DNA of 64,000 bases from Clostridium hydrogenum (lineage in GTDB: Bacteria > Bacillota > Clostridia > Clostridiales > Clostridiaceae): positions 502,016 through 566,015 of the forward strand of contig NZ_JAEACT010000002.1 of assembly GCF_021432385.1 (NCBI RefSeq), given 5' to 3'. A model generated the notes under the pieces. The model saw only the letters and a list, made by a program, of their open reading frames with translations, ran no database searches and had not been told where the DNA came from. Position numbers and translations under genes: made by a program. This document shows, in pieces, positions 1-18,382 of this stretch (position 1 is the first letter of the stretch; every line of letters begins with the position of its first letter).

Positions 1-203
1 GCAAATACGCCCATAAATGGTCCAAGCAATAATTGAGGTATTAAAGTTACAGCTAATACCGAAGCAAACTTCGTTCCTGAACCTGTAATTTTAAGTACAT
101 ATAATGACAAAGCAAAATCCTGCATTAACGTTCCTATATTAGATATAATTGATCCTAACATTAACAAGGAAAAATCCTTTTGTTTTAACAGTTTTACATT
201 CAT
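1..203 (-). CDS. MFS transporter, N-terminal fragment (gene runs off window start)
   Basis: ATG at 203..201 followed by MNVKLLKQKDFSLLMLGSIISNIGTLMQDFALSLYVLKITGSG..., the hydrophobic TM1/TM2 pattern of MFS exporters. Its ATG overlaps the TGA stop of the upstream rSAM gene (ATGA), which implies translational coupling. Confidence 0.6.
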   Translation of the reverse strand, partial: MNVKLLKQKDFSLLMLGSIISNIGTLMQDFALSLYVLKITGSGTKFASVLAVTLIPQLLLGPFMGVF

Positions 204-1477
204 ACTATTTCTCCTTTATTATTTATAATATCACTATAATAATGAAGCTTAATTCTATCTTCTAATGTCATGCCTCCTTTAGCTTTAGCAATGCATATAT
301 TAGAATTTTTAAATCTACTCAATTTACAACCGTCCATACACATAGGTAACTCTATGCACTCTCTGCATGCTTTATTATCAAATGGTGACATACTATGAAA
401 TTTATAATATAAAGACTGATCAGTAAAATTTATATTTTTCTTATCTCCTATGCTTCCAAAATACAATCCTTGTTCACCTGCCATAGAGCAAAAAGTCAAA
501 TTTCCTTTTGGATCAATAGTAATAGCATTTGGTGTACTTGCTTCACACTTTACTAATCTATTCACCTTATCCGAATACATATATCCTTTTTCTATAGCCA
601 ATTTATACAAATTATAACAATTTAAATTTTCTTTGTTTTGAAATACATTTACAATCTGAATGTTAACATTCCTTCTATACTTTTCAGGAATTATATCAAA
701 TAACTCAACTATACTTATATAATTATTTTCATCAAGATTTATTCTCAAATTTAAATTAATATTTTCTTGTAACAATTTCACAAAATTCTTTACTACTTTT
801 TCAAAAGTTCCCTCTCCATTAGCAAGAGGCCTTTTTTTATCGTGATAATATTTTGTACCATCTAATGTAATCTGAATATTTTTAATTGATAAATCATTTA
901 ACATACTTATATTTTTATCATTAAACAAATAACCGTTGCTAGTCATTCTAGCTTCATACTCACAATTGTTTTCATCACATATTTCCTTAAATATTTTTGT
1001 TAATTCAACAATTTTATTAAATTGTAACATAGGTTCTCCACCAAACCATGCAATCTTCAGTTTACTTATTTTTTTACACTTATCTTTTACTAAATTAGTA
1101 ATTTTATTTGAAACCTCATCTGTCAAATTTTCATTTTTATGTTCTTCATAGCAATATACACATCTAAAATTACAATTAAGCGTCGTTTGAATAACTAACG
1201 TTGCGGTATCTTGTTGAAATTTTTGTTTATTATATAAAAAACTAAGCCTGCTTATTTCATCAAGCTCATCTGAAACTGCTGCTCCTATTTTAATCATTTT
1301 TTTTATGTATTCAGCTTCTTTTAATTCAAATTTATCATGTTTTAATTTTTTTAATATCCCTTTAATCTGTTCTTTTTCCAAATTATTAAATACTAAATAT
1401 TTTCGCGTTAAAATATTATAAAGTAATGATTTCTTATCATTTACATCTAAAATTATATTATATTTAGACTCCTTCAT
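200..1477 (-). CDS. radical SAM / SPASM-domain peptide-modifying enzyme
   Basis: CxxxCxxC cluster (NCNFRCVYCYEEH) about 100 aa from the N-terminus. Before it is an RRE-sized N-terminal extension. The C-terminal region is Cys-rich (CSMAGEQG...CRECIELPMCMDGCKLSRF...NICIA), typical of SPASM auxiliary cluster domains. RBS upstream. Confidence 0.85.
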   Translation of the reverse strand: MKESKYNIILDVNDKKSLLYNILTRKYLVFNNLEKEQIKGILKKLKHDKFELKEAEYIKKMIKIGAAVSDELDEISRLSFLYNKQKFQQDTATLVIQTTLNCNFRCVYCYEEHKNENLTDEVSNKITNLVKDKCKKISKLKIAWFGGEPMLQFNKIVELTKIFKEICDENNCEYEARMTSNGYLFNDKNISMLNDLSIKNIQITLDGTKYYHDKKRPLANGEGTFEKVVKNFVKLLQENINLNLRINLDENNYISIVELFDIIPEKYRRNVNIQIVNVFQNKENLNCYNLYKLAIEKGYMYSDKVNRLVKCEASTPNAITIDPKGNLTFCSMAGEQGLYFGSIGDKKNINFTDQSLYYKFHSMSPFDNKACRECIELPMCMDGCKLSRFKNSNICIAKAKGGMTLEDRIKLHYYSDIINNKGEIV

Positions 1478-1564
1478 AGTTTTCTCCTTACACAGCTTGA
1501 TATATATGCGAAAATCCGCATATATATCAAGCTGTTTACTTTATTACTATACAAAACTCAAACT

Positions 1565-1729
1565 TTATTTAGTAGATATTACTACACAAAAATTAAGTCC
1601 TGCTTCCTCTTCAGCTGAAAGATCCAATTCTTCATTTTGTATAGCATTGGCTAATTCTGCTGAATTGATATACACCTTTCCTTCTTCAACTTTAACTTGT
1701 TCCTTTGTAACTTTAATTTCCTTTGCCAT
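1565..1729 (-). CDS. small ORF (54 aa), candidate RiPP precursor peptide
   Basis: Absent from the ORF track (<60 aa). AGGAGG (1954..1959 is the other one; here CCTCCT at 1738..1743 on plus), 8 nt before the ATG at 1729. Translation: MAKEIKVTKEQVKVEEGKVYINSAELANAIQNEELDLSAEEEAGLNFCVVISTK. Acidic leader-like region, short hydrophobic C-terminus with a single Cys. Lies immediately upstream of the rSAM/SPASM gene. Confidence 0.55.
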   Translation of the reverse strand: MAKEIKVTKEQVKVEEGKVYINSAELANAIQNEELDLSAEEEAGLNFCVVISTK

Positions 1730-1785
1730 AATAAATTCCTCCTAAAATAATATTTATTTATTTTTAATTAATAATAATTAACAAG

Positions 1786-1944
1786 CTAAGATTTTCCTGT
1801 TACTTTTATTGTTAAAATCTCATATCCTATTCCATTGCTTTCCTCATCAACTTCAGTATCTAATGAAGTATCTTGAATATCTAAATCATTTAAATTCTCA
1901 TCCTGTTTAACTTTACGATTTTTGTTCTTTTTATCCTGTCCCAC
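1786..1944 (-). CDS. small ORF (52 aa), possible second precursor-like peptide
   Basis: AGGAGG (CCTCCT at 1954..1959 on plus), 9 nt before the GTG at 1944. Translation: MGQDKKNKNRKVKQDENLNDLDIQDTSLDTEVDEESNGIGYEILTIKVTGKS. Shares an acidic-then-G-then-hydrophobic C-terminal pattern with the 54-aa ORF. The non-ATG start lowers confidence. Confidence 0.35.
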   Translation of the reverse strand: MGQDKKNKNRKVKQDENLNDLDIQDTSLDTEVDEESNGIGYEILTIKVTGKS

Positions 1945-2014
1945 ATCCAATCACCTCCTTAAAGTGCCATCTTTTTAATATATCATTACTAACTTTTAAA
2001 TTTTAGTGAAAATA

Positions 2015-2584
2015 TTATCCTAATTTATATGGTGCTAATGCACTTATAAATCCATAAGTTTCATCAGCCTCTAAATTTTCTAAGGCTTGATATTTTTCAA
2101 ATAATTCTTCTAAATCTTTTTTAAAATTCACCATTGTTTCTTCATCAGCTTTTATAAAATATGCTTTTATTTTATGAGGCTTTTGCTCATAGTCAGGTAT
2201 ATTCCTTATAATATCCCTTGTCAAAGATGCAAAATGCTGCGCAGATAATTCAATATTTTCTTTATCATTACTTGATTCACAATTATTTTTTACATAATTC
2301 AATATTTCAATATCCGTCGATGCCAATTTATATGTTTTTTCTACCTTACCATCAATTATTCTTACATCTGTTACTTTAATAAGCTTTGCATCAACCAATC
2401 GCTTAACATATAATTGAGTAGAAAAACTAGGAGTATTCAAATCTCTAGAAATTTCTTTTATTGTTTTAGCGCCTGACAAAAGAATCAATAATATGTCTAA
2501 AGCCTTTCCGTTAACAATATCCTTTTTAAATTTATCATCCTCATTAATAAGTGCTACTTCATTTATGCAAGGCATATCAGCCAT
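2015..2584 (-). CDS. putative winged-helix transcriptional regulator
   Basis: N-terminal HTH-like segment ALDILLILLSGAKTIKEISRDLNTPSFSTQLYVKRLVDAKLIKV, resembling ArsR/MarR-type winged helix. Acidic C-terminal domain. Confidence 0.5.
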   Translation of the reverse strand: MADMPCINEVALINEDDKFKKDIVNGKALDILLILLSGAKTIKEISRDLNTPSFSTQLYVKRLVDAKLIKVTDVRIIDGKVEKTYKLASTDIEILNYVKNNCESSNDKENIELSAQHFASLTRDIIRNIPDYEQKPHKIKAYFIKADEETMVNFKKDLEELFEKYQALENLEADETYGFISALAPYKLG

Positions 2585-2601
2585 AGAATCATCTCCTTTC
2601 C

Positions 2602-3990
2602 CTAATTCATTTTAAGTAACGGAACTAGTGCATCTATATCGAATTTTCCAATAGCCGCTAGTCCAATATTGTTTTCATTAAATATTTCTGTTGCAACTCT
2701 GTACACATTTTCTTTTGAAACATGCTTAATATTTCGAACTTCTTGCTCTAATGAAAACGACTTTCCGTAAGATGAGCATTTACCCAAAAACTTTAAATGC
2801 GCCACTATGTTATCTATATCTAATAAAGTTCTTGTTTCAAGAATTCGTTTCGCTCTATCAACTTCTATATCATCAAAACCTTTTTCTTTTATTCTTAAAA
2901 ATTCATTTGTCATAATTTTTACTATCTCTTCTACTGATTCATGAGCACATACAGCCATAAACCCAAGCGTTCCTCTATCTTCATAAAAATTAGTAAAAGC
3001 TCCCAAGTTGTATGCTAGTCCTCTCTTCTGACGAATCTCCTGGCATAACCTTGATTCCATAGTAGGATTACCCAATATAGTTGATAAAACCTCTATGCTA
3101 AGCCTGTCTTCATGGTTGTATGATGGAAGTCTAAATCCTATTGATAAAGCTGAACTTTTCCCGTTATTCACTGAATTAAAATATATGCCAGGATCACTAT
3201 CTACAATTTCTTTATATTTTCTAGTACTCTTATCACTCCATGGTGAAAAACTTTCTTCAATCATTTCTAATGTTTCTTCATAATCAATTCCACCTATAAC
3301 AACTAATGTTGTATTTTCTGGTGTGTATGTTTCATCTATTATTTTTTCTATATCCTCTAGCTTAGCTTTTTTTATATTTTCGATATTTCCAACTATTATT
3401 CTACCTATACCTGTATTTCCCCAAAGTGCTTGACTAGTTCTTTCTTTTATTTGATTAAACGAAGAATAAAAAGATACAGTTTCCTGTGTTACAACTTTTT
3501 TTTCATTCTCAAATAATTCTTTTGAAAAAGTCTTATTGTCCATAACTATACTTGACAAAGTTTCTATGCATTTTCCTAAAGTTCTAGTTAATCCTGTAAA
3601 ATAGTAGCTGGTAGTTTCTTTTGTGGTACCTGCATTATAAACAACACCTTCATATGAAGTTTCGTCAATTAAATTTTTAAATCTTTTGTTATCATAGTTG
3701 TTTATATTAATCATAAGATGTTCTAACAAATGTGATAATCCATTAGTCTCATCATCTTCATGCTTACTTCCTTGCTTTACCCAAACACCACATGCCATCG
3801 TCTTAACAGCTGGTATTTTATGCATAACCACTCGTAATCCATTTTCTAAATATACGGTTAATATATCATACACTTTCTCACCCACTTGCTTAGTTGTTTT
3901 GCTTGTATGTAATAATATCATGTTTTTTTTAAAAAGTAAATAATTTTTATTTACTTTTTTATTTTTTAATTTCTGGATCAATAGAGTCAC
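2602..3990 (-). CDS. M16 family (pitrilysin/insulinase-like) zinc peptidase
   Basis: Inverted zinc-binding motif HxxEH (GLSHLLEHLM). Size and two-lobe organisation fit the M16 family. The likely true start is the ATG at 3921 (MILLHTSK...), which removes the overlap with the upstream small ORF. Confidence 0.8.
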   Translation of the reverse strand: MTLLIQKLKNKKVNKNYLLFKKNMILLHTSKTTKQVGEKVYDILTVYLENGLRVVMHKIPAVKTMACGVWVKQGSKHEDDETNGLSHLLEHLMININNYDNKRFKNLIDETSYEGVVYNAGTTKETTSYYFTGLTRTLGKCIETLSSIVMDNKTFSKELFENEKKVVTQETVSFYSSFNQIKERTSQALWGNTGIGRIIVGNIENIKKAKLEDIEKIIDETYTPENTTLVVIGGIDYEETLEMIEESFSPWSDKSTRKYKEIVDSDPGIYFNSVNNGKSSALSIGFRLPSYNHEDRLSIEVLSTILGNPTMESRLCQEIRQKRGLAYNLGAFTNFYEDRGTLGFMAVCAHESVEEIVKIMTNEFLRIKEKGFDDIEVDRAKRILETRTLLDIDNIVAHLKFLGKCSSYGKSFSLEQEVRNIKHVSKENVYRVATEIFNENNIGLAAIGKFDIDALVPLLKMN

Positions 3991-4120
3991 TAATATATAT
4001 ATTAGTTAATGCATACTTTTGTTGATTGTTTTTATTTGCATTACTAATATTTTTTGCCCCAATATTTAATACCAACAATGCACTTAACCCTATAATTATT
4101 ATTTTTGCTGATTTTTTCAT
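3959..4120 (-). CDS. small secreted peptide (53 aa) with signal peptide
   Basis: Not in the ORF track. GAGGGGG, 7 nt before the ATG at 4120. Translation: MKKSAKIIIIGLSALLVLNIGAKNISNANKNNQQKYALTNIYISDSIDPEIKK. Classic n-h-c signal peptide with an IGA|K cleavage site. Lies divergent to the RNPP-like regulator and co-directional with the M16 peptidase. Confidence 0.4.
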   Translation of the reverse strand: MKKSAKIIIIGLSALLVLNIGAKNISNANKNNQQKYALTNIYISDSIDPEIKK

Positions 4121-4312
4121 CACATTGCCCCCTCTTTTATTAATTGTAGCCTTTTAGGTAAATTTGTTTAATAAAGTAAACTTTGATTTGTTTTACCTTA
4201 TTATATCACTTAACTTTTTTAAAGTAAATATATATTATTTACTTTTATGTTTTTTATTTTTATTAACTATGATATAATTAGATAAGAAATTTCAATTAAA
4301 GGAGAAAGTATC

Positions 4313-5641
4313 ATGAATACTAAAGTTATTACAGCTGGCGAAAAGCTTAAAGATATAAGAAAAAAATATAAGATAAAGCAATATGAATTAAGTGGGAATG
4401 AGCTTACACGAAACATGATAAGCATGATTGAAACTAACAAAGCTGGGCTAACGAAAAACACAGCTGAAATACTACTTAAAAATATTCATATATTATGCGA
4501 AAAAAAATCTATAGATTGTGATGTTACTTTAGAATATTTGCTTGAATCAGATGAAATTCAAGCAAAAAAAATATGTGATGATTTTATTAAATTATTGAAT
4601 TCAAATCCTACGAAAATACTTGAAGATGAATTTGAAACAAGTCTCATTGAAATACAAAAGTTGCTAGATGCATATAAATTGAGGGATAAAAAATTAACAA
4701 TATATTTAAAACTAAGTGATATATTTGATGATTGTCGTGATTTTTATAAGGCATACCTCTATTCTTTAAGAGCTTTTGAAAATTATAATGATTTGTTCAA
4801 CAACCCCGAATTAATAGACTTGATTATTAAAATCACTTATTACTGCAATCATTTAAAAAAATACAAAGAAATGCTAGATTTTGTTAAATTAGCATATATC
4901 TATATGCCTAATCTTCCAAAAGATAAAGAATACAAATTAAAATTCAACACCATAAAAGCTTATAAAAATTTAAAGGATTATAATTCCGCCTTAAGAACAA
5001 TTGATGAAATAGAAAATACTTTTAAAGAAAATTTAAATTCAGATTCTGCAGAAAAAATAAGCATCTTGATTTTTAAAGCCAATTGTCTTAGCGAAAAAAA
5101 ATTTTTTATAGATGCCCTACAAATACACAGAAAAATATTAGAATTGACTGAGGATAATGTGGAACTTCATCTTGTCACATTATGCAATATAATTGAAGTA
5201 TATATAAAAATAAAGGATAGCCAAAAGCTCAAAGAATATATTGATAAATCTATCTTTTATTTAAAAGAATATGACAAATTAGAAAACAAAATTTATTCTT
5301 CTGAGATATATAATCTTATTGGATTGGGATATTACACTATAAATAAATTTGAAATGAGCAAAATATACTTTAACAAGGCTTTAAGTAAAGCCAAAAAATA
5401 TAAAGATGTAGACGTTATAATCTCAGCTTTTGAAAAGCTTTTAAGTATAGCTATAACTACTAATTGTACAGATGAAGTGAATGATTTAAAAAATCAATTG
5501 ATTGAAATAATTTCTCTTGAACTATTGCCTATAAACAATGTTGTGATATTTCAATTTATCAAATATTACAATGACTTAGGTGATAGAGAAACCATTAATG
5601 ATATAGTTAACTTTGTAACTTCTATGCTATCTAAACGTTAA
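4313..5641 (+). CDS. XRE-HTH + TPR-like transcriptional regulator (RNPP/Rgg-like quorum-sensing regulator family)
   Basis: N-terminal XRE-type HTH (KLKDIRKKYKIKQYELSG...ISMIETNK). It is followed by about 380 aa of helical repeats with TPR-like periodicity (AYLYSLRAFENYNDL..., GLGYYTINKFEMSKIYFNKALSKAKK). Good RBS. Confidence 0.6.
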   Translation: MNTKVITAGEKLKDIRKKYKIKQYELSGNELTRNMISMIETNKAGLTKNTAEILLKNIHILCEKKSIDCDVTLEYLLESDEIQAKKICDDFIKLLNSNPTKILEDEFETSLIEIQKLLDAYKLRDKKLTIYLKLSDIFDDCRDFYKAYLYSLRAFENYNDLFNNPELIDLIIKITYYCNHLKKYKEMLDFVKLAYIYMPNLPKDKEYKLKFNTIKAYKNLKDYNSALRTIDEIENTFKENLNSDSAEKISILIFKANCLSEKKFFIDALQIHRKILELTEDNVELHLVTLCNIIEVYIKIKDSQKLKEYIDKSIFYLKEYDKLENKIYSSEIYNLIGLGYYTINKFEMSKIYFNKALSKAKKYKDVDVIISAFEKLLSIAITTNCTDEVNDLKNQLIEIISLELLPINNVVIFQFIKYYNDLGDRETINDIVNFVTSMLSKR

Positions 5642-7798: not shown

Positions 7799-8557
7799 TT
7801 ACCAGCCTTTACTCTCAAGAAAGCTAAACACTTCTTCTTTTCTTTCTTCTTGTCCCATGCTAGTATATTTGGGCATATTAAGTTCTCCATCAATTCTTCC
7901 ATCTTTAATGTAGAGTAGCCTATTTGCTCTGCAAGCTGCTTTAGCATCATGAGTTACCATTACAATTGATTGTCCTTCATTATTAATCTTTGAAAGTATA
8001 TCAAGTACTTCCTGTCCACTGGAGGAATTTAATGCTCCCGTAGGTTCATCTGCAAAAATCACCTCTGGCTTATTTATAAGCGCTCTACATATAGCAACTC
8101 TTTGCTTTTGGCCGCCAGAAAGCTGTGATGGATACTTGCTTTCATGCTCTTTCAATTCAAATGCATTTAATAATTTATCTATAGTTTGTCTTAACTCATT
8201 TTTGTCCCTTTTCATCTTATAAGTTGGAGCCGCTATATTTTCATATATATTTAAATCATTAATCAAGTTTATTCCCTGAAATACAAAAGAAAGCTTCTCT
8301 CTTCTTATTTTGTCCATTTCCTTTTTATCTATTTTTTTTTAATCCTTGTCTAGCATTTTAACTTCACCTATGGTAGCATTATCCATACCACTTAAGAGGT
8401 ACATTAAAGTTGATTTACCTGAGCCCGAGCTTCCCATTATTACAGTAAAATCACCTTTATATATTTTTAGATCCATATTCTTAATCACATTATAATTTTC
8501 GCCGTCCGTATCAAAGCTTTTGCAAAGACCTTTTGTTTCTATTATTACTTCTTTCAT
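7799..8557 (-). pseudogene. ABC transporter ATP-binding protein (MacB/BceA-like), disrupted by a frameshift
   Basis: Walker A GSSGSGKST is in ORF 8339..8557 and ends KMLDKD*. ABC signature LSGGQKQRV and Walker B IFADEPT are in ORF 7799..8317, in another frame. The two reading frames exchange within about 8 nt next to an A10/T10 homopolymer (8331..8340). Confidence 0.6.
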
Positions 8558-17509: not shown

Positions 17510-18382
17510 TTAAAAGTACTTTTCCAAGTCCGAAACCTTTTCAAAATCAAATATTTCTGTTCCTATTATCTCTATATTTTCTTCTGGAAGCGATCTTATT
17601 TTATCAATATATTCTTTTGGCAATTTTTTAAACTTTTTTACTAGCAATTTAATTAACAGCTCTGATTTTCCTTCTGCCTTTCCCTTTTCTATTCCTTCTT
17701 CAATACCCTCTTCTCTGATCATTCTACCTATATCCGTCATTGAAAACACCTCCTTTAACTTTTTCTTACTAATTTCATCTCCAAATTTATCCGTTAACGC
17801 ATAAAGCATACTTATGCACTGAAGTTTATTTTCATTATCCTTTATATTTTCTGCAATCTCAATACTTTCTAATGCTCTTTTAAGCCTACTCTCTTTCCCA
17901 CTCATCAAAGGCAAAAATGTTAGCGTTAATATATCATTAGGATTTAACTTTTCTCCTTTTGATACCTTTTCACTTATATATTTTAACTTCTCATCACCAT
18001 TTAATTTTTTCATGTAAACTGCTTCAATACTATATTTTATTGTTCCAGCATCTATAAACGTTTCTGTATTATCTATGTCTGCTGAATATACAACTACTGT
18101 TTTCACTTTTCTTTTTTCTTTATAATACAACGAAGCATCATAAAACAAAAACCTTTTTATATCATCTTTTTTATCCGTGGTTTGAAACTCGAAATGCAAG
18201 TAGTTTCCATCTTCAGTATAAAAAAGATAATCTACAAAATTTGTATTGATTTGAATATCCTTTATTTCTGTTTCTGCTGATCCAAGTATCTTCGTATCTA
18301 TACCGAAAAAGTCAACAGCACTTTGCTTAAATATATCCATTGCCTTCTTTAAAACTGTATCCTCAATCTTATTATAATCCAT
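17510..18382 (-). CDS. Rpn-family recombination-promoting nuclease / putative transposase (PD-(D/E)xK, YhgA-like)
   Basis: 290 aa. The C-terminal GIEEGIEKGKAEGKSELLIKLLVKKF repeat region is characteristic of this family. N-terminal nuclease-like core. Confidence 0.5.
   Translation of the reverse strand: MDYNKIEDTVLKKAMDIFKQSAVDFFGIDTKILGSAETEIKDIQINTNFVDYLFYTEDGNYLHFEFQTTDKKDDIKRFLFYDASLYYKEKRKVKTVVVYSADIDNTETFIDAGTIKYSIEAVYMKKLNGDEKLKYISEKVSKGEKLNPNDILTLTFLPLMSGKESRLKRALESIEIAENIKDNENKLQCISMLYALTDKFGDEISKKKLKEVFSMTDIGRMIREEGIEEGIEKGKAEGKSELLIKLLVKKFKKLPKEYIDKIRSLPEENIEIIGTEIFDFEKVSDLEKYF

Follow-up and report, generated by a model that had tools for sequence, protein, structure and literature searches.

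In sactipeptides such as subtilosin A (SboA/AlbA) and in ranthipeptides such as thermocellin (CteA/CteB) and freyrasin (PapA/PapB), a short gene for a precursor with a conserved leader and a Cys-bearing core precedes the gene for a maturase with a Cx3Cx2C motif and a full SPASM domain, and a stem-loop lies between the two genes. The subtilosin cluster also contains the M16-type peptidases AlbE and AlbF. A similar arrangement is present at one end of the stretch of Clostridium hydrogenum DNA analyzed herein (64,000 nt, the window), where two small minus-strand ORFs, here termed ORF1 and ORF2, lie directly upstream of a radical SAM (rSAM)/SPASM gene. Taken jointly, with all of its parts, the best explanation is that they are the peptide genes of a radical SAM RiPP operon, a reading to which we give somewhat better than an even chance. 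The locus differs from those of sacti- and ranthipeptides in that its cores of 9–23 residues have 1–3 Cys, with one in ORF1 of the window, and in that an obligatory Cys-free second peptide (ORF2) and an ArsR-like protein are part of the operon core. We know of no description of such a second peptide and ArsR-like core protein for sacti- or ranthipeptides. The SCIFF precursor, with about six Cys in roughly 45 residues, is also unlike ORF1 with its single Cys and the relatives of ORF1 with 1–3, and there is no NCBIfam match.

The streptococcal NxxC RaS-RiPPs (NxxcA/NxxcB), which are controlled by peptide quorum sensing, offer a comparison for the precursor core, where a single Cys follows a few residues after an Asn. 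The sequences at this place are LNFC in the window and FNGGC, WNIAC, and LNIGGC in relatives, with Gln or Asp in other loci. A putative RRNPP-type regulator gene and a small candidate pro-peptide gene lie by the operon, as do shp/rgg in streptococcal RaS-RiPPs. The spacing differs, however, being 0–4 residues here, only about half of the loci have the regulator, an HTH-TPR protein of 442 aa, and the NxxC systems have no counterpart of ORF2, the M16 peptidase, or the winged-helix protein. The PQQ and mycofactocin pathways (PqqA/D/E/F and MftA/B/C/E) similarly pair a small acidic peptide with an rSAM/SPASM enzyme, in PQQ together with an M16 peptidase (PqqF), and ORF2 resembles PqqA and MftA in having a C-terminal conserved motif with Glu and Tyr behind a variable N-terminus. 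However, ORF2 lacks both the E-x-x-x-Y and the C-terminal GVY motifs and its Tyr is replaced in 8 of 36 members, while the winged-helix protein has an ArsR topology (alpha-alpha-alpha-beta-beta) that differs from the PqqD/RRE order of elements. No PqqB, PqqC, or MftD gene was found in any locus examined. A further likeness, to the clostridial RRNPP Qsr/Qsp pairs, belongs to the neighboring genes and not to ORF1 and ORF2. The neighbors are a divergent gene for the 442-aa HTH-TPR protein and a 54-aa signal-peptide ORF with a conserved C-terminal ...IDP..K, which recalls the layout of an HTH-TPR receptor with an adjoining pro-peptide in Qss systems (PMC8102284).

The core of the operon consists of six genes on the minus strand, in the order M16 peptidase, ArsR-like winged-helix protein, ORF2, ORF1, radical SAM/SPASM enzyme, and MFS exporter, and the same order is found in eight loci from clostridia and metagenomes (L001, L003, L004, and L084–L088) and in part in a ninth (L002). 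A contig scan with the single rSAM protein gave no loci, and a rescan with a four-sequence rSAM alignment gave 80, of which only L004 (42% identity) is of the same operon type. The operon was not found described in literature searches on Clo7bot, on RRNPP with radical SAM, on Clostridium hydrogenum, and on M16 with RiPP and Clostridium. The 423-aa M16 zinc peptidase (2602..3873, minus strand; HLLEH; Pfam Peptidase_M16 and M16_C), a candidate leader peptidase, was given its start at GTG 3873 by comparison with L084–L088; homologues begin MYDIL, and neither of the two longer alternatives, from ATG 3921 and from GTG 3990, has a ribosome-binding site. The winged-helix protein (189 aa, 2015..2584, minus strand), which is ArsR/PH1932-like with a C-terminal helical domain, has weak Pfam matches to HTH_24, TrmB, MarR_2, and HTH_5 in all homologues, and its AF2 model has an alpha1-alpha2-alpha3-beta-beta wing at residues 27–87 (pLDDT 73–84). 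The Foldseek matches of this single-sequence model, which is reliable for residues 27–87 only, are ArsR-type regulators and support no more than an ArsR-like designation, and a PDB sequence search with the profile of the protein gave no relative. At the other end of the operon, the MFS exporter gene is truncated at the edge of the window, which includes its 5′ part (1..203, minus strand). The start codon of the gene, an ATG at 203, shares the sequence ATGA with the stop codon of the rSAM gene, and the translated fragment (MNVKLLKQKDFSLLMLGS...) matches the MFS genes of 416–448 aa that follow the rSAM gene in L002, L003, L004, and L084–L088.

The RRNPP-like HTH-TPR regulator gene (442 aa, 4313..5641, plus strand) is divergently transcribed and has weak Pfam HTH_19 and TPR matches, both below the cut-offs. 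Homologues are found in L084, L087, and L088 and partially in L001. Divergent from this gene is the small ORF with an N-terminal signal peptide (3959..4123, minus strand), a Qsp-like candidate pro-signal. A small ORF with a signal-peptide-like N-terminus adjoins the regulator in the window, L001, L084, L087, and L088, and one is also found in L003, whose contig stops short of the position of the regulator gene; no such ORF is found at the other loci. A consensus scan for a minus-strand promoter between 1730 and 2015 gave none that qualified.

The two small minus-strand ORFs claimed by the first-pass annotation do exist: ORF1 (1729..1565, 54 aa, WP_234117523.1) starts at an ATG and ORF2 (1944..1786, 52 aa, WP_234117524.1) at a GTG. 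The annotation had rightly credited both with a canonical AGGAGG at ideal spacing; on the minus strand, the site of ORF1 is at 1743..1738, with 8 nt to the ATG, and that of ORF2 at 1959..1954, with 9 nt to the GTG. AGGAGG occurs 20 times in the entire 64-kb window on both strands (G+C 24–31%), and with a sequence this scarce, its presence before two adjacent small ORFs is not chance. In the mechanical ORF list ORF2 is extended to TTG 1950, which is only 3 nt from the Shine-Dalgarno site, and the ORF2 homologue of L003 has an ATG at the very codon that is GTG in the window. The annotation had also held that the ORF track missed both ORFs. They are indeed absent from it, from the length cut-off alone, but they are not unannotated, as RefSeq has both among the hypothetical proteins of Clostridium hydrogenum.

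It is virtually certain that ORF1 and ORF2 are real coding genes, as had been proposed. Open frame, length, and ribosome-binding site are kept in all nine complete syntenic loci, down to 25–36% protein identity, with a GGAGG-type site 5–9 nt upstream of each ORF1 and ORF2 homologue in these nine further loci. Each family has one copy per syntenic locus and is absent from the 79 other rSAM/SPASM loci. Between the window and L001, third codon positions account for 13 of 19 changes in ORF2 and, in the leader of ORF1, for 12 of 19 (p = 4e-5, binomial test on the two pooled), a test that for ORF1 does not separate the strands, as the plus-strand ORF opposite has the same wobble positions. That ORF (82 aa, 1497..1745) is the basis of a contrary reading, in which the small ORFs are chance, the real feature is the plus-strand ORF or nothing, and the region is an untranslated rSAM leader. 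The plus ORF is longer than the small minus-strand ORFs, and lying in the antisense frame that shares the wobble positions of ORF1, its synonymous and non-synonymous changes between the window and L001 (8/9) are close in number to those of the ORF1 sense strand (8/8), so these counts cannot tell the strands apart. The strands are told apart by stops, ribosome-binding sites, and protein-level conservation. The antisense frame that matches the plus ORF has 2–4 stops in L001, L002, and L088, with 2–3 in the 44-codon leader region, there is no GGAGG upstream of the plus ORF, which begins within the hairpin discussed below, and its 82-aa product is absent from the protein collections searched. In the related loci it is the two minus-strand frames, and not the plus frame, that are conserved as proteins, to ~25–36% identity and with their ribosome-binding sites. 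The chance reading is thus hardly credible and is already refuted by the comparative data, and the plus-strand ORF, which had been judged to lack a ribosome-binding site and to be probably antisense noise, is antisense noise. ORFs of 50 codons adjoining rSAM/SPASM genes are therefore worth keeping in ORF tracks, and it is the antisense shadow ORF, though longer, that is the artefact.

The maturase gene (200..1477, minus strand) encodes a 425-aa radical SAM/SPASM enzyme with the pattern Cx3Cx2C and Cx13Gx4C...Cx2Cx5Cx3C...C and with Pfam Radical_SAM (54.5 bits, cut-off 29.5) and Fer4_12 matches. The radical SAM motif CNFRCVYC (C102-x3-C106-x2-C109) is invariant in four homologues, as are all seven SPASM Cys (C311-x13-G-x4-C330, C371-x2-C374-x5-C380-x3-C384, and C395), and the Pfam SPASM match itself is below the cut-off (17.2 versus 21.5 bits). 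The best NCBIfam families are Clo7bot TIGR04334 (209 bits, cut-off 600), TIGR04463 (207, 525), and CefB NF038107 (203, 600), with PapB NF047865 at 108 bits (340) and SCIFF TIGR03974 at 91 bits (425), and by these scores the enzyme falls short of the curated cut-off of every named family. The nearest solved structures are CteB (5wgg, 1.8e-15) and SkfB. The full-length alignments to RiPP maturase models begin at residues 1–6, and a Pfam search for PqqD (RRE) with residues 1–95 of 10 homologues gave no match. Its best family matches, like the solved enzymes nearest to it (CteB and SkfB), form thioethers in peptides, and we accordingly infer a thioether crosslink of the sacti- or ranthipeptide type in the ORF1 core; with scores this far below the cut-offs of the named families, the reaction may differ from thioether formation.

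ORF1 is very probably the rSAM-RiPP precursor of this operon, with a leader of residues 1–44 and a core of residues 45–54, since it has a conserved leader and a hypervariable core, there is a Cys in each core, and the rSAM/SPASM gene lies directly downstream. The conserved leader (...ELANAIQNE.LDL..DEEAG) includes a box, AIQNEELDLSAEEEAG (1598..1645, minus strand), that is common to ORF2. The region after EEA[GNA] is a hypervariable core of 9–23 residues with 1–3 Cys in 10 of 10 loci, and between the window and L001 the codon differences in the core are all non-synonymous (9, with 0 synonymous). Scans of ORF1, ORF2, and all of their homologues against Pfam and NCBIfam, at E-values up to 1, gave no meaningful family and no precursor model. 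The first-pass annotation had described a charged N-terminus, an acidic middle, a G, and a hydrophobic tail, a layout that fits a leader and core and is explained by the position of the ORFs directly upstream of an rSAM/SPASM maturase, a context that it had not recognized. The predicted core of the window, LNFCVVISTK (1568..1597, minus strand), has a single Cys, Cys48 (1586..1588). In each of the 10 loci, the first Cys of the core is preceded by an Asn, Gln, or Asp at a distance of up to four residues, as N-x-C in the window, as N-x-x-C in L001 and L002, as Q-x-x-C in L084 and L086, and with other spacings elsewhere; NxxcB, whose beta-thioether joins Cys to Asn, also accepts Gln and Asp (PMC9389541). 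Tiny one-cysteine cores that differ between close relatives are a pattern typical of antimicrobial or signaling peptides under diversifying pressure. Between the precursor and maturase genes is a perfect 20-bp stem-loop (1492..1535, minus strand; −31.6 kcal/mol, z = −7.2) that ends right before the maturase ribosome-binding site, and a hairpin of 14–21 bp and of unrelated sequence is at the same position in every related locus.

From these features we infer a maturation pathway in which the 44-residue leader of ORF1 would dock on the maturase, which, by radical chemistry and with its auxiliary Fe-S clusters, would tie Cys48 of LNFCVVISTK to a nearby residue in a thioether, the most likely partner being the Asn two residues upstream. 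Cleavage near EEAG|L by the M16 peptidase would then remove the leader, and the product of ~10 residues would leave the cell through the MFS pump, while the hairpin 3′ of ORF1 may keep the precursor mRNA or its translation above that of the enzyme. ORF2 would be an intrinsically disordered, Cys-free peptide that the same machinery, probably the peptidase and exporter, handles as a companion substrate, and its processing might release a peptide beginning with the [IV]G[YI]E[IF] motif. Two hypothetical proteins would thereby become part of a testable natural-product pathway and of a previously unnamed clostridial family of radical-SAM-modified peptides.

ORF2 is, on the evidence of its sequence profile, the founder of an unnamed family. 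At 50% identity the profile search gave 28 representatives, which, apart from one spurious match, are stand-alone proteins of 42–65 aa. The near-invariant motif is EESNGIGYEI in the window (1816..1845, minus strand), with the consensus EE[RS][PN]G[IV]G[YIWL]E[IF], and its residues G38, G40, and E42 are invariant in 36 sequences, while the Tyr of GYEI becomes Ile, Leu, or Trp in eight of these. The N-terminus is K-rich and variable, and the motif is followed by a short tail that also varies and is often rich in Gly. Modeled alone, ORF2 has no fold (pTM 0.13), and it is Cys-free, with one exception in the family; the only easily modified invariant residue is Glu. A profile-profile alignment places residues 22–38 of ORF2 (DIQDTSLDTEVDEESNG; 1831..1881, minus strand) against residues 29–45 of ORF1 (AIQNEELDLSAEEEAGL), a box of 17 residues with the common pattern IQ[DN]..[LV]D....EE..G. 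With hhalign the E-value is 0.0016 and the probability only 16%, and the similarity is short, acidic, and statistically weak. When scored against the HMM of the other family, 6 of 9 ORF1-family and 18 of 36 ORF2-family members beat at least 95% of composition-preserving shuffles. The hairpin and helix at the N-terminus of the ORF1 leader, which 9 of 10 ORF1 homologues keep, have no equivalent in ORF2, whose pattern of a conserved "core" behind a variable N-terminus is the reverse of that of ORF1. The claim that the two ORFs have the same organization is borne out in part, and in sharper form, by the aligned box.

We propose, at a little under even chances, that ORF2 serves the same machinery as a second substrate, one without Cys, or as a companion peptide. 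The family with its conserved motif, the disorder, and the box in common with ORF1 count in favor, whereas the missing N-terminal leader part, the want of Cys and of modifiable invariant residues other than Glu, the reversed conservation, and the weakness of the box similarity count against it, as does the closeness of ORF2 to the regulator gene in four loci. The nucleotide identity between the window and L003 is 96–98% across the M16 and regulator genes, falls to 74–79% exactly at the start of ORF2, and stays at this level through ORF1 and the rSAM gene. By this mosaic, which is one recombination event only, ORF2 recombines with the peptide-plus-maturase module and not with the peptidase and regulator. 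The same result weighs against a regulatory or adaptor role, in which ORF2, through its leader-end box, would mimic a leader as a decoy, timer, or chaperone on the leader site of the peptidase or maturase, or would bind the ArsR-like protein as co-regulator or anti-repressor and thereby adjust operon expression. In keeping with such a role, the conserved part of ORF2 is a short linear motif within an otherwise disordered peptide, the tail resembles a floppy end more than a bioactive core, the Tyr varies, and there is no conserved residue open to modification. The protein encoded upstream has an ArsR-like DNA-binding fold, and its gene is overlapped or abutted by ORF2 in L004, L084, L085, and L087, with gaps among the four of −4, 13, 20, and 27 nt. 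In the window, L001, and L003, however, ORF2 lies 70–74 nt past the regulator gene with its own strong ribosome-binding site, and we consider the regulatory role rather unlikely.

The linkage of ORF2 to the maturase gene in the mosaic would also suit a role as the second substrate of the rSAM enzyme itself, in which the invariant Glu or its neighbors would be modified (epimerization, or a C-C or C-O link) or Glu42 would accept an intermolecular thioether from the Cys of ORF1 to give a two-chain product. Glu42 is invariant, the box in common with ORF1 includes the sole part of the leader kept in the minimal ORF1 leader of L004, and radical SAM enzymes of this clade are reported to link Cys to Asp or Glu side chains, PapB being an example (PMC9413430). 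Such a role is nonetheless very improbable, as the N-terminal leader elements common to 9 of 10 ORF1 homologues are missing from ORF2 and one maturase would have to act on two very different cores. An intermolecular RiPP thioether is not known to us. Improbable too, if to a lesser degree, is that ORF2 represents a new class of RiPP accessory, a separate and obligatory disordered leader-mimic peptide that would be joined covalently to the ORF1 core by an intermolecular Cys-Glu thioether, in a two-chain product, or would gate maturation in trans from the site where the maturase or peptidase binds the leader; neither is, as far as we are aware, an established RiPP principle. As a second substrate, decoy, or crosslink partner, ORF2 would, if any of these were true, add a component beyond the scheme of precursor, enzyme, protease, and exporter.

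Two other assignments of ORF2 were rejected. It is not an RRNPP signal (Qsp), since a signal peptide is lacking and ORF2 also occurs in L004, L085, and L086, which are without the regulator, and it is not the precursor of a second rSAM enzyme (571–586 aa), as that module is missing from most loci. The spurious match in the ORF2 profile search, P0024 (961 aa), is a eukaryotic FN3-repeat protein in which an F-G hairpin resembles the motif by chance, and we take it only as a hint that the ORF2 motif can form a beta-hairpin.

The first 4130 nt of the window hold a single compact row of minus-strand genes. It opens with a small signal-peptide ORF (4123..3959), followed by a zinc peptidase of the M16 type (about 3873..2602, HLLEH) and a winged-helix protein of 189 aa (2584..2015). 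Then come ORF2 (1944..1786, GTG start, AGGAGG 9 nt upstream), ORF1 (1729..1565, AGGAGG 8 nt upstream), a radical SAM/SPASM enzyme (1477..200) and an MFS transporter, whose ATG at 203 overlaps the enzyme stop and which is truncated by the window start. Searches with the proteins, together with look-ups of genomic context, yielded nine related loci, four from sequencing-run assemblies (L001, L002, L003 and L088), one from Clostridium sp. KNHs205 (L004) and four from metagenomes (L084-L087). The order M16 peptidase, winged-helix protein, ORF2, ORF1, rSAM/SPASM enzyme and MFS transporter is constant in every complete locus (L002 is partial and starts at ORF1), and the six-gene operon is therefore conserved. 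The start of the peptidase varies with the gene call, as the mechanical ORF (2602-3990, -) gives 462 aa from GTG 3990 and overlaps the upstream small ORF, homologues begin MYDIL, equivalent to GTG 3873 and 423 aa, and the L001 call begins 16 codons farther upstream, at an ATG lacking a ribosome-binding site.

Both small ORFs are real genes. Their products are RefSeq WP_234117523.1 (ORF1) and WP_234117524.1 (ORF2, from the same GTG start as in the first-pass annotation), each a 'hypothetical protein [Clostridium hydrogenum]', and a 54-aa TTG version of ORF2 was absent from the protein collections searched. HMMs of the two families matched exactly one ORF each per syntenic locus; among the ORFs of 25-150 aa in the 79 other rSAM/SPASM loci retrieved, they matched none. 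Every homologue of either ORF is preceded at 5-9 nt by a GGAGG-type ribosome-binding site, and L003 has ATG at the codon of the ORF2 GTG; the two strands of the 64-kb window together contain AGGAGG only 20 times, and G+C is 24-31% around the operon. Compared with L001, ORF2 of the window shows 3/3/13 substitutions at codon positions 1/2/3, and the ORF1 leader 4/3/12 (pooled third-position excess, p = 4e-5). The 82-aa plus-strand ORF (1497..1745) overlapping ORF1 gives 8 synonymous and 9 non-synonymous changes vs 8/8 for the ORF1 frame, but this mimicry arises because its antisense frame shares the ORF1 wobble positions. Its frame is open in the window only; in L001, L002 and L088 it is broken by two to three stops in the leader region. 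It has no ribosome-binding site, its start codon lies inside a hairpin, and its product was absent from the protein collections searched. Relatives that kept the plus frame and not the minus frames would have spoken against the earlier view of it as probable antisense noise; the opposite was found, and that view therefore stands. Since both ORFs were already annotated as hypothetical proteins, what is new is their identity, and the analysis supports a new rSAM RiPP operon family in which ORF1 is the precursor and ORF2 a companion peptide that is conserved.

ORF1 has a leader/core architecture with an obligatory Cys. The family shares the leader K[ED]MYKVE[GD]GKVYIESEELANAIQNE.LDLFVDEEA[GNA], followed by a hypervariable tail of 9-23 residues, which is LNFCVVISTK in the window and, in relatives, FNGGCLVIEI, WNIACTGVK, LNIGGCIVIN, NACHGFGCVVIE, AASQGVCGWSC, AMEAGGNIIICKVIICWGDAAE, AAAQGICGLGCEDSEIMC, GTVNSGNCLC and LKDISPIAGDGVAACC. 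Every core contains one to three Cys, and core codons of close relatives differ by 0 synonymous and 9 non-synonymous changes while the leader is constrained. Such hypervariable cores favor an interaction under diversifying pressure, and the product could be an antimicrobial or a signal. No model in Pfam or NCBIfam matched ORF1.

The rSAM enzyme carries the Cx3Cx2C motif (C102/C106/C109) and the full SPASM pattern Cx13Gx4C...Cx2Cx5Cx3C...C, and matches Radical_SAM and Fer4_12 in Pfam. Its best NCBIfam matches are all peptide maturases (Clo7bot, TIGR04463, CefB, FlmE/OhkG, PapB and SCIFF), although far under the curated cut-offs (e.g., 209 vs 600 bits), and its nearest solved relatives, CteB and SkfB, both form thioethers. 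In 10/10 loci an Asn, Gln or Asp lies no more than four residues before the first core Cys; NxxcB attaches Cys at the beta-carbon of an Asn so placed, and tolerates Gln, Asp and Ala as well (PMC9389541), which provides a lead to this residue as a candidate thioether acceptor. The proposed mechanism resembles that of sacti-, ranthi- or NxxC-type thioether RiPP operons. The maturase would bind the ORF1 leader (residues 1-44) and link Cys48 through a thioether, most probably to Asn46, the M16 peptidase would cleave near EEAG|L, and the MFS pump would export the roughly 10-mer product. The operon belongs to no named maturase or precursor family tested, and full-text literature searches found no description of it or of either peptide family. 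A SCIFF system was excluded by the one Cys of ORF1, and a PQQ-like system by the absence of ExxxY, PqqB and PqqC.

ORF2 is the one unexplained obligatory component. A profile of eight homologues, searched against 1.84 billion representatives (E <= 0.001), found 28 proteins, stand-alone and of 42-65 aa bar one, an FN3-repeat protein dismissed as spurious; no Pfam or NCBIfam family matched. In a 36-sequence alignment a K-rich, poorly conserved N-terminus precedes the segment [LI]EI[QTS][DE]..[LIV][DN][VL][DE], the near-invariant motif EE[RS][PN]G[IV]G[YIWL]E[IF], with G38, G40 and E42 invariant, and a short, variable, frequently Gly-rich tail. AlphaFold2 with the family alignment gave no fold (pTM 0.13), and ORF2 is therefore disordered and not a small folded protein. 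Cys is missing with one exception, and the motif Tyr is I, L or W in eight members and is therefore not a universal modification site. A reading in which the rSAM enzyme itself modifies ORF2, or in which Glu42 joins it to another molecule by a crosslink, seems improbable.

In a profile-profile comparison, ORF2 residues 22-38 align with the final 17 leader residues of ORF1, sharing the box I-Q-[DN]-x-x-hydrophobic-[DN]-hydrophobic-x-x-x-E-E ... G with identical spacing (hhalign E-value 0.0016, probability 16%). The minimal ORF1 leader of L004 retains this box as its sole leader part. Composition-preserving shuffles gave p <= 0.05 in 6/9 and 18/36 members, counts whose independence is overstated as the members are related, and show a similarity greater than that expected from acidic composition. 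Through this box the same peptidase and exporter might also process ORF2 to a peptide starting IGYEI..., to which we give slightly less than an even chance. A role as leader-mimic decoy or partner of the regulator would suit the close spacing of ORF2 to the regulator gene in four loci and its lack of a plausible modifiable core, and is somewhat less likely. In DNA, window 1-4130 and L003 256-4680 agree at 96-98% of positions in the genes for the M16 peptidase and the winged-helix protein. Where ORF2 begins, identity drops to 74-79%, and it remains at 31-77% across ORF1 and the rSAM gene; for the small ORF with the signal peptide it is 69-74%. The sharp breakpoint at the winged-helix gene/ORF2 junction places ORF2 in an exchangeable 'peptides plus maturase' module, and the mosaic indicates exchange of this module by recombination. 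ORF2 is thus a disordered peptide with a conserved motif and the shared leader-end box, and it travels with ORF1 and the rSAM gene.

A hairpin of 14-21 bp lies between the precursor and maturase genes in the window, L001-L004 and L084-L087 (z -3.1 to -7.2), at the same position but with unrelated sequences. In the window the hairpin (1535..1492, -) has a perfect 20-bp stem. A gap of 2 nt separates it from the AAGGAGA ribosome-binding site of the maturase gene, and since no U-run follows it on the minus (coding) strand it is not a canonical terminator. We infer that the element acts in processing, stability or attenuation and so holds the precursor in excess, a common assumption for bacteriocin operons.

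All homologues of the winged-helix protein weakly match DNA-binding winged-helix families. In its single-sequence model (pLDDT 73-84) the elements run alpha1-alpha2-alpha3-beta-beta, as in ArsR and MarR proteins and unlike the beta-beta-beta-alpha-alpha-alpha order of PqqD-type leader-binding domains, and its closest matches in structure are C-terminally extended ArsR-type regulators (PH1932, Phr and Kfla_6221); on this weak model we therefore treat it as a putative pathway regulator. In about half of the loci the operon is bordered by a divergent pair, an RRNPP-like HTH-TPR protein (442-451 aa) and a short ORF (46-60 aa) whose product carries a signal peptide and, at its C-terminus, a conserved ...IDP..K. 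This pair lies at 3959-4123 (-) and 4313-5641 (+, 442 aa) in the window, 580-1917 and 2087-2254 in L084, 2963-4318 and 4518-4658 in L087, and 2778-4106 and 4289-4471 in L088; it is missing in L004, L085 and L086. The pair suggests possible peptide quorum-sensing control of the operon, like that of clostridial Qsr/Qsp systems (PMC8102284).

A second module lies 3' of the MFS gene in L003 (5785-7711), L088 (9586-11778) and L002 (3115-3699), the window itself starting inside that gene. It comprises a K-rich/acidic peptide of 48-59 aa with a Gly/Pro/Ile-rich tail (…AIGPGVLGITTA, …SPIGPIGISIID) adjoining a radical SAM protein of 571-586 aa, whose gene appears fragmented in L002. Two more AGGAGG sites in the window stand 8 nt before ORFs that begin with ATG and have 72 and 76 codons, at 8339-8557 (-) and about 17510-17740 (-).
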